Assembly (NCBI RefSeq): GCF_058153355.1
Contig: NZ_CM177019.1
DNA: 64,000 nucleotides
Reading direction: 5' to 3' (one strand)
Shown: piece after piece, positions 57,746 through 58,540 of the stretch
Position numbering within the stretch: the first letter of the stretch is position 1
Layout of the letters: the number at the start of each line of letters is the position of its first letter
Program-made: the position numbers and the translations under genes
Notes under the pieces: model-generated
Seen by the model: the letters and a program-made list of their open reading frames with translations, nothing else
What the model was told of the DNA's origin: nothing
Database searches by the model: none

Positions 57746-58540
57746 TTGAAAAAACTGAAACTGCATGGCTTTAATAATCTGACCAAAAGTCTGAGTTTTT
57801 GTATTTACGATATCTGCTATGCCAAAACTGCCGAAGAGCGCGACGGTTATATCGCTTATATCGATGAACTCTATAATGCCAACCGCCTGACCGAAATTCT
57901 GTCAGAAACCTGTTCCATTATCGGAGCCAATATTCTTAACATCGCCCGCCAGGATTACGAACCACAGGGTGCCAGCGTCACTATTCTGGTGAGTGAAGAA
58001 CCGGTCGACCCGAAACTTATCGACAAAACAGAACACCCTGGACCACTGCCAGAAACGGTCGTTGCCCATCTCGATAAAAGTCATATTTGCGTACATACCT
58101 ATCCGGAAAGCCATCCTGAAGGCGGTTTATGTACCTTCCGCGCTGATATTGAAGTCTCGACCTGCGGCGTGATTTCTCCGTTGAAGGCACTGAATTACCT
58201 GATCCACCAGCTTGAATCCGATATCGTGACCATTGATTATCGCGTGCGCGGTTTTACCCGCGACATTAACGGTATGAAGCACTTTATCGACCATGAGATT
58301 AATTCGATTCAGAACTTTATGTCCGAGGATATGAAGGCGCTGTATGACATGGTGGATGTGAACGTCTATCAGGAAAATATCTTCCATACAAAAATGTTGC
58401 TTAAAGAGTTCGATCTTAAGCACTACATGTTCCACACTAAACCGGAAGATTTAACCGACAGCGAGCGCCAGGAAATTACCGCTGCGCTGTGGAAAGAAAT
58501 GCGCGAGATTTATTACGGGCGCAATATGCCAGCTGTTTAA
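57746..58540 (+). CDS. speD: S-adenosylmethionine decarboxylase proenzyme
   Basis: 264-aa [51 protein letters not shown]...; first codon in sequence is TTG (57746-57748); 15 nt after speE stop. Confidence 0.95.

Follow-up and report, generated by a model that had tools for sequence, protein, structure and literature searches.

The stretch of DNA analysed here (64,000 nucleotides, termed the window) contains speD, acnB, panC and hrpB, four genes that each begin with a codon other than ATG. The window is a segment of the E. coli chromosome, displaying 95-99% identity to 5,425 of 5,426 complete E. coli genomes (best match 99.3%), and extends from dxr/frr to yacH in reverse orientation with respect to the 129-193 kb region of K-12. 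Every CDS start in the annotation of K-12 MG1655 (NC_000913.3) was mapped onto the window. This yielded 50 K-12-type CDS starts, which together with seven from a rare allele of the yad fimbrial operon, all of them ATG, give a total of 57. Seven of the 57 starts are not ATG, comprising GTG in acnB, panC, hrpB, fhuB and frr, TTG in speD and ATT in pcnB. The original prediction was correct for the four genes it named, but overlooked fhuB, frr and pcnB. The seven start codons, several of which are preceded by a recognizable Shine-Dalgarno sequence (SD), are as follows.

1490 to 1492, minus strand: GTG start codon of frr, annotated in K-12, with an N-terminal peptide at the GTG
22062 to 22064, minus strand: GTG start codon of fhuB, with a GGAGGT SD (ΔG -10.8 kcal/mol), overlapping the fhuD stop codon as GTGA
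31182 to 31184, minus strand: GTG start codon of hrpB, assigned from annotation, SD and orthologue N-termini
34163 to 34165, plus strand: ATT start codon of pcnB, annotated as ATT in K-12, with 100% identity to K-12 over the surrounding 300 nt
44499 to 44501, plus strand: GTG start codon of panC, assigned from annotation, an N-terminal peptide, INRI-seq and homologue alignment
57746 to 57748, plus strand: TTG start codon of speD, assigned from the sequence, K-12 and PGAP annotation, 80 of 80 loci and an INRI-seq peak
61710 to 61712, minus strand: GTG start codon of acnB, assigned from annotation, 24 of 24 loci, INRI-seq and Ribo-RET

The use of AUG, GUG and UUG as start codons in E. coli is 83, 14 and 3%, respectively (quoted in 10.1101/063800), and hence around 17% of starts are not ATG. 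At this background frequency 9.7 non-ATG starts would be expected among the 57, compared with the seven observed (P(X>=7) = 0.87), while the probability of at least one TTG is 0.82. These data show that non-ATG starts are not enriched in the window relative to the rest of the genome. The occurrence within 64 kb of seven such starts, including one TTG and one ATT, might be viewed as a regional cluster with a common cause. This proposal is scarcely credible, however, given the expected frequency, the location of the genes in unrelated operons and pathways, and the fact that the rare AUU represents a single, already known case, pcnB. Sequencing error is also discounted as the origin of the non-ATG codons, as K-12 has the same codons and those of speD and acnB also recur in other genera.

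The start codons of speD, acnB, hrpB and panC are identical in the window and in the K-12 annotation, and the lengths of SpeD (264 amino acids), AcnB (865) and PanC (283) are also the same. PGAP annotation of the closest genome assigns the same starts to speD and acnB. The positions originally proposed for the TTG of speD (57746-57748, plus strand) and the GTG of acnB (complement of 61710-61712) are thus borne out by sequence and by both annotations, and those for hrpB (GTG, complement of 31182-31184) and panC (GTG at 44499) by sequence and the K-12 annotation. Complementarity to the anti-SD was determined for each start. The annotated starts of the four genes display ΔG values of -6.2 to -9.1 kcal/mol with spacers of 6-11 nt, while the rival upstream codons of acnB and hrpB have either values no stronger than -2.9 or a spacer of 0. 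SD complementarity is at a functional distance and is better than that of the rivals, as expected of SD-led near-cognate starts. The two checks that had been suggested for the prediction, analysis of ribosome-binding site spacing and N-terminal alignment with orthologues, are in agreement, with each annotated start having its own SD at 6-11 nt and the alignments supporting the annotated start of all four genes. No Rfam family matched near any of the start sites at the gathering threshold, and a paper on AUGUG/GUGUG starts mentions none of these genes. The four non-ATG starts are already known, ordinary and present in reference annotations, and it is very probable that they are simply correctly annotated near-cognate starts of well-known E. 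coli housekeeping genes.

The gene acnB illustrates how the choice of start codon influences annotation. The features at its 5' end are listed below.

59115 to 61712, minus strand: acnB CDS, 865 amino acids, as annotated in K-12 and by PGAP
61713 to 61865, minus strand: non-coding in-frame upstream extension of acnB, 51 codons, with no usable SD and a length that varies between genera
61720 to 61725, minus strand: acnB SD, GAGGAG, spacer 7 nt, ΔG -8.9 kcal/mol

The mechanically derived open reading frame begins at an ATG at 61865, 51 codons upstream of the GTG. The ΔG at this ATG is +0.3, the ATGs located 9 and 7 codons upstream of the GTG display values of -2.9 and +0.7, respectively, and at a GTG 17 codons upstream the SD lies directly against the codon (spacer 0). 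In all 24 loci that reach the 5' end of acnB the start is GTG. Genera differ in the length of the open frame upstream of this codon (5-66 codons), and some of them (for example Yersinia) contain an in-frame stop 5-6 codons upstream. Codons 2-8 of acnB are 100% codon-conserved, compared with a median of 0.68, and the nucleotides around the GTG are near-invariant. This is consistent with the binding of RyhB to the acnB ribosome-binding site, which blocks 30S binding (PMC4150767). The control of acnB mRNA by RyhB and apo-AcnB is not known to depend on the start being GTG. The crystal structure of AcnB (PDB 1L5J) begins MLEEYRKHV, the annotated N-terminus, although the entry mirrors the annotation and is not independent proof. 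The N-terminus of AcnB was reportedly determined by protein sequencing by Bradbury et al. in 1996.

A shorter in-frame extension is found upstream of hrpB, as shown by the following features.

28890 to 31184, minus strand: hrpB CDS, 764 amino acids, with a 45-codon in-frame deletion relative to K-12
31185 to 31229, minus strand: non-coding in-frame upstream extension of hrpB, 15 codons, beginning with an ATG that lacks an SD
31191 to 31194, minus strand: hrpB SD, GGAG, 6 nt upstream of the GTG, ΔG -6.2 kcal/mol

HrpB consists of 764 residues, compared with 809 in K-12, and the cause of the difference is the internal in-frame deletion. The mechanical open reading frame begins at an ATG at 31229, 15 codons upstream of the GTG, where the ΔG is -2.4. 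MS-x-LP is the typical N-terminus of orthologues in Pluralibacter, Kluyvera, Klebsiella, Cronobacter, Pantoea, Edwardsiella, Aeromonas and Photobacterium, and is shared by the 809-residue E. coli form. The N-terminal tails of the few over-extended HrpB gene calls are unrelated and do not align with each other. DNA comparison showed that Pluralibacter and Edwardsiella use GTG at this position while Aeromonas uses TTG, and the upstream candidates differ from genus to genus. The upstream ATG sits within ATGCTACAAT, a sequence shared with Pluralibacter that resembles an extended -10 promoter element. If ATGCTACAAT does function in this way, the ATG would lie upstream of the transcript. A consensus scanner identified no minus-strand promoter for hrpB; its single site in this region was on the plus strand (TTAACA-17-TAGCAT, 31201-31229), which fits thpR. 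The structures of HrpB (PDB 6HEG and 6EUD) use the annotated N-terminus, but, like the AcnB entry, mirror the annotation and do not prove it independently. The start assigned to hrpB is suggested by its SD, the orthologue N-termini and the three DNA comparisons. The K-12 HrpB protein record is at version.4, and an older annotation used the longer form.

It is highly improbable that AcnB, HrpB or both are additionally produced as N-terminally extended isoforms initiated at the ATGs at 61865 and 31229. The two ATGs are in frame with no intervening stop, as such isoforms would require. Neither, however, is preceded by an SD, and the extensions are conserved in neither length nor sequence, with in-frame stops at these locations in other genera. 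At acnB, the signals obtained by Ribo-RET and INRI-seq are at the GTG, while the hrpB ATG lies inside the conserved element with a promoter-like appearance. INRI-seq also provides no alternative site for either gene in Table S3 of PMC9825163, where the synthetic transcripts reach only around 30 nt upstream of the annotated starts and thus stop short of the far ATGs. The longer frames very probably represent chance open frames that run through 5' UTR or promoter DNA. The proposal that each of the four genes is preceded by a spurious upstream extension therefore holds for acnB (51 codons) and hrpB (15 codons), but not for speD and panC, which have no upstream candidate. Similarly, the view that start choice is important for annotation here is justified for acnB and hrpB, which would be mis-annotated by picking the longest open reading frame, although current reference annotations require no correction.

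In panC the start is defined by several lines of evidence. The relevant features are given below.

44486 to 44491, plus strand: panC SD, AAGGAG, spacer 7 nt, ΔG -8.7 kcal/mol
44499 to 45350, plus strand: panC CDS, 283 amino acids, as annotated in K-12

The SD overlaps the stop codon of panB (TAA, 44485-44487), and the open reading frame begins exactly at the GTG. Alignment begins at residue 1 both for the PanC entries in the PDB, which come from E. coli (1IHO), Salmonella and Yersinia, and for homologues from organisms as remote as Thermotoga, and this excludes start candidates downstream. The start of panC is thus based on proteomics, INRI-seq, the PDB alignments and the absence of an upstream candidate. 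The ATT start of pcnB is also in accord with earlier work, with Binns and Masters said to have shown an AUU start for this gene in 2002. In E. coli, an AUU start has been confirmed for no gene other than pcnB and infC (10.1101/063800).

Published initiation mapping provides direct support for three of the four starts, those of acnB, speD and panC, at which initiating-ribosome peaks were present in five of five replicates (PMC9825163). In Table S2 of that study the INRI-seq values over the five replicates were 412-493 for acnB (K-12 position 131615), 149-244 for panC (148795) and 35-61 for speD (135582). The corresponding in vivo Ribo-RET values were 191 for acnB, which was scored as detected, and 0 for both panC and speD. 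At the annotated starts of hrpB, pcnB and fhuB both methods gave 0 in the same table. N-terminomics of K-12 by TRAINSPOTTER identified an 11-residue N-terminal peptide of panC and a 12-residue N-terminal peptide of frr, each at the GTG (PMC13245402). The TRAINSPOTTER table also lists Ribo-RET support for panC (PMC13245402), in contrast to the value of 0 in PMC9825163.

These observations are consistent with conventional initiation at GUG and UUG. An SD 6-11 nt upstream would position the 30S subunit at each start, and the initiator fMet-tRNA would read GUG or UUG with a first-position mismatch, generating a protein that begins with (f)Met. The start codon would then act as a fixed setting of the translation level, with GUG approximating AUG, UUG several-fold weaker and AUU weaker still. 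In reporters, UUG and AUU directed expression 6-8 times lower than AUG or GUG (PMC3592434), and elsewhere the three canonical starts span 10-100% of AUG (10.1101/063800). acnB, panC, hrpB, fhuB and frr do not differ from canonical GUG/UUG initiation, being SD-led, producing (f)Met and using the K-12 positions; speD stands apart only through the strict conservation of its UUG and the long SD spacing in E. coli. The AUU starts of pcnB and infC, the former located in the window, follow the same logic, in that expression is set by the choice of start codon. AUU is nevertheless a non-canonical start with 1-2% of AUG activity in reporters (10.1101/063800), while speD, acnB, hrpB and panC use canonical alternatives.

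Three of the non-ATG genes are downstream cistrons that begin close to the preceding stop codon, at distances of 15 nt (speE-speD), 11 nt (panB-panC) and -4 nt (the GTGA overlap of fhuD and fhuB). As these distances are short, ribosomes completing the upstream gene can contribute, and may add to initiation at speD, panC and fhuB. With a gap of around 20 nt, roughly 40% of initiation in reporters was by reinitiation and 60% de novo (PMC3592434). The three pairs resemble known coupled cistrons in their spacing, which points to putative translational coupling, but differ from them in that speD, panC and fhuB each possess a strong SD of their own.

The start of speD was explored further through its conservation. 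The features of the gene are as follows.

57729 to 57734, plus strand: speD SD, AAGGAG, ΔG -9.1 kcal/mol, with an unusually long spacer of 10-11 nt
57746 to 58540, plus strand: speD CDS, 264 amino acids, as annotated in K-12 and by PGAP

The SD overlaps the TAA stop codon of speE (57728-57730), which is also the first in-frame stop upstream of speD, 18 nt from the TTG. No ATG, GTG or TTG lies in between, and the first 80 codons of the gene contain no further in-frame ATG, GTG or TTG. A genome scan with SpeD, which had at least 583 matches, gave 80 Enterobacterales loci, one per species, with Escherichia at one end of the range and Xenorhabdus, Photorhabdus and Budvicia at the other. All 80 species use TTG as the start, always preceded by an extended SD. 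Codon 2, by contrast with this invariant start, encodes K, Q, H, S, N or R, and the synonymous sites in the alignment are well mixed (median major-codon fraction 0.61-0.62). The upstream consensus of the 80 loci is aaGGgGGTGAacNAAA-TTG, in which the extended SD ends 6 nt short of the start codon. The site of the E. coli SD is occupied in other genera by GGAGGTGA or GGGGGTGA, which end 6 nt 5' of the TTG, and an in-frame TGA is usually found inside the extended SD. Other genes in the same genomes switch between start codons, with speE displaying ATG in 69 and GTG in 4, cueO 63 to 2 and yacL 43 to 1, while speD displays no such changes. Eight more distant SpeD homologues (40-60% identity) were also identified. 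Seven of these begin with ATG and have no clear SD; the preceding gene is of the OsmC family, and not speE, in six of the seven, while one precedes a spermidine-synthase gene. The eighth, on a very AT-rich contig that maintains the speE-speD order, retains TTG.

The combination of an invariant UUG with a strong extended SD appears to have been selected, as it is fixed across Enterobacterales. The invariance of the TTG is a mild surprise and should be viewed as a modest lead rather than a result. Ribosome profiling indicates high expression of SpeD even though its start is UUG (PMC5053530), and thus a weak start cannot simply be equated with low expression in this case. No sequence-related chain for the SpeD N-terminus was found in the PDB. 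The N-terminus is said to have been determined by protein sequencing by Tabor and Tabor in 1987. The speE-speD gap, 15 nt in the window, has modes of 14 and 28 nt across species and ranges from -37 to +105 nt. A SpeE-SpeD fusion generated by readthrough was considered because in the window the TAA of speE is in frame with the TTG, five codons apart. This was rejected as the gap varies and the three relative frames, represented by 27, 21 and 32 of the 80 species, are randomly distributed.

Conservation at the speD locus is not confined to the start codon. Codons 15-19 (57788-57802; AGC/AGU-CUG-AGU-UUU-UGU) display a mean major-codon fraction of 0.968, compared with the median of 0.61, a degree of conservation matched by 0 of 20,000 permutations. 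RNAalifold paired these codons with codons 5-9, giving the following candidate structure.

57754 to 57802, plus strand: candidate hairpin in the early speD CDS, predicted by RNAalifold, with codons 15-19 as the 3' arm

None of the 12 predicted pairs was changed on both sides, the stability of the hairpin was no greater than that of shuffled sequence (z -0.44), and no Rfam family reached its gathering score in the early speD coding sequence. By these measures early speD does not display the attributes of a structured cis-regulatory RNA; only the synonymous-site conservation is significant, and the hairpin predicted in codons 5-19 is unproven.

These features invite the suggestion that the speD start region is an active regulatory element, comprising the invariant UUG, the distant strong SD and the conserved codons 5-19, that answers to polyamines or to the translation of speE. 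This suggestion is compatible with the ordinary near-cognate start described above, to which it would add a further layer. Initiation is enhanced by polyamines where the start codon is UUG or GUG and where the SD lies around 10 nt from the start (PMC4405209), and E. coli speD possesses both attributes, its UUG and an AAGGAG 10-11 nt upstream corresponding to the sequence features by which the polyamine modulon is defined in PMC4405209. Within the window frr is a listed member of this modulon, described by Igarashi and Kashiwagi, owing to its inefficient start codon (PMC4405209), and speD shares with the modulon the UUG and the distant SD. The retention of TTG in 80 of 80 species while speE, cueO and yacL switch starts, the ATG starts of seven of the eight distant homologues, which lack an obvious SD and in six of seven cases follow an OsmC-family gene, and the near-invariant synonymous sites of codons 15-19 are likewise as expected of such an element. 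Against this, speD, like acnB, panC and hrpB, is not reported as a modulon member in PMC4405209, and a literature search revealed no report of E. coli speD being controlled at the level of translation. The hairpin provides little help, lacking compensatory changes and excess stability, while variation in its 5' arm is bounded by the genetic code, such that compatibility with wobble pairing is weak evidence. A circuit in which polyamines boost their own synthesis would not be an obvious choice of design either. The suggestion is therefore considered tentative and rather unlikely, and ordinary near-cognate initiation is the preferred explanation for the speD start.

A more specific version of this idea, which is doubtful, is that the initiation region of Enterobacterales speD is a conserved control module in which the invariant UUG, the extended SD (GGAGGUGA or GGGGGUGA) and codons 15-19, possibly paired with codons 5-9, would tune the synthesis of S-adenosylmethionine decarboxylase to polyamine status or to the translation of speE. 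To our knowledge, no translational regulation comparable to the eukaryotic uORF and 5' UTR mechanisms has been described for the bacterial enzyme. If such a module does exist, speD would be an unrecognized member of the polyamine modulon or part of a new autoregulatory loop in bacterial polyamine synthesis. A weak UUG that is fixed in 80 species beside conserved synonymous sites is a pattern of the type seen at genes under translational control.

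Conservation in the start regions of speD and acnB extends to synonymous sites, the two regions being located as follows:
57788-57802, plus strand: synonymous-site conservation block covering speD codons 15-19, from 80 Enterobacterales species (one locus each)
61690-61737, minus strand: near-invariant acnB start region, from cross-genus comparison

In speD the mean major-codon fraction of codons 15-19 was 0.968, compared with a median of 0.61 in the 80 Enterobacterales species, a degree of conservation that was matched in none of 20,000 permutations. These codons may pair with codons 5-9; covariation gives no support for such pairing. 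Around the acnB GTG, from approximately −25 to +25, the nucleotides are almost unchanged across genera, including the synonymous sites of codons 2-8, and it is here, probably, that RyhB pairs and the 30S subunit binds as reported in PMC4150767. Outside Enterobacterales, where eight distant speD homologues (40-60% identity; among them loci L085-L091) were sampled, the homologue starts with ATG and is preceded by an OsmC-family gene, not speE, in six of the eight, while at L092 a spermidine-synthase gene instead comes next downstream.

At panC and hrpB a TTG overlaps the GTG start in another frame, and further observations on starts or gene length concern panC, mrcB, thpR and rpnC:
44497-44501, plus strand: UUGUG context at the panC start
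31182-31186, minus strand: UUGUG context at the hrpB start
approximately 44847 (K-12 panC codon 117), plus strand: internal PanC N-terminus, from TRAINSPOTTER
28661 and 28796, minus strand: ATG start codons annotated in mrcB, for PBP1B alpha and gamma
31045-31788, plus strand: thpR mechanical ORF (the longest open frame), with the annotated ATG at 31258
45571-46515, minus strand: rpnC, 314 aa in the window versus 300 aa in K-12

The overlapping TTG opens an ORF of only 2 codons in panC (TTG TGT TAA) and of ∼25 codons in hrpB; published work describing dual-frame starts of the AUGUG and GUGUG type names neither gene. The TRAINSPOTTER N-terminomics data (PMC13245402) contain a second, internal PanC N-terminus at an ATG 116 codons past the start, represented by the peptide [12 protein letters not shown]. 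The two mrcB starts, which are 45 codons apart, are both conserved, and the internal one is also present in Table S3 of the INRI-seq study (PMC9825163). In thpR the open frame begins 71 codons before the ATG of the annotation, a further example of the longest ORF being misleading.

The original prediction listed non-ATG starts for speD (TTG), acnB, hrpB and panC (all GTG); missing from that list is pcnB:
34163-34165, plus strand: pcnB start codon ATT, the same codon as in K-12

The 300 nt around this start are 100% identical to K-12, and besides pcnB only one other AUU start has been confirmed in E. coli (10.1101/063800).

Comparison with K-12 also revealed differences at the following sites:
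29709-29726, minus strand: in-frame deletion site in hrpB
9242-9553: dapD-yaeH interval lacking yaeI
36494-43574, plus strand: yad-type chaperone-usher fimbrial operon between folK and panB

The hrpB gene lacks 135 nt (45 codons) in frame, corresponding to K-12 residues 487-531, and the deletion is flanked by two imperfect direct repeats, each encoding LIAPLL. As all 12 of the best-matching E. coli genomes carry full-length hrpB, the deletion looks either private to the present strain or an assembly artefact. The yaeI gene, which in K-12 and a close relative sits between dapD and yaeH, is absent, and the distance from the end of dapD to the start of yaeH is 312 nt, compared with ∼1 kb in K-12. 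The fimbrial operon, in which all seven genes start with ATG, is a rare allele, at least 80% of its length being covered in only 14 of 5,426 E. coli genomes; blastn against the K-12 and closest-genome operons gave no usable match, the one match being a weak HSP (69.6%) to K-12 htrE.

Three RNA elements matched Rfam above the gathering score:
3570-3679, minus strand: CssrA sRNA, between tsf and rpsB
4518-4604, minus strand: t44 RNA (rpsB leader)
12760-12805, minus strand: HtrA/degP 5′ UTR thermometer
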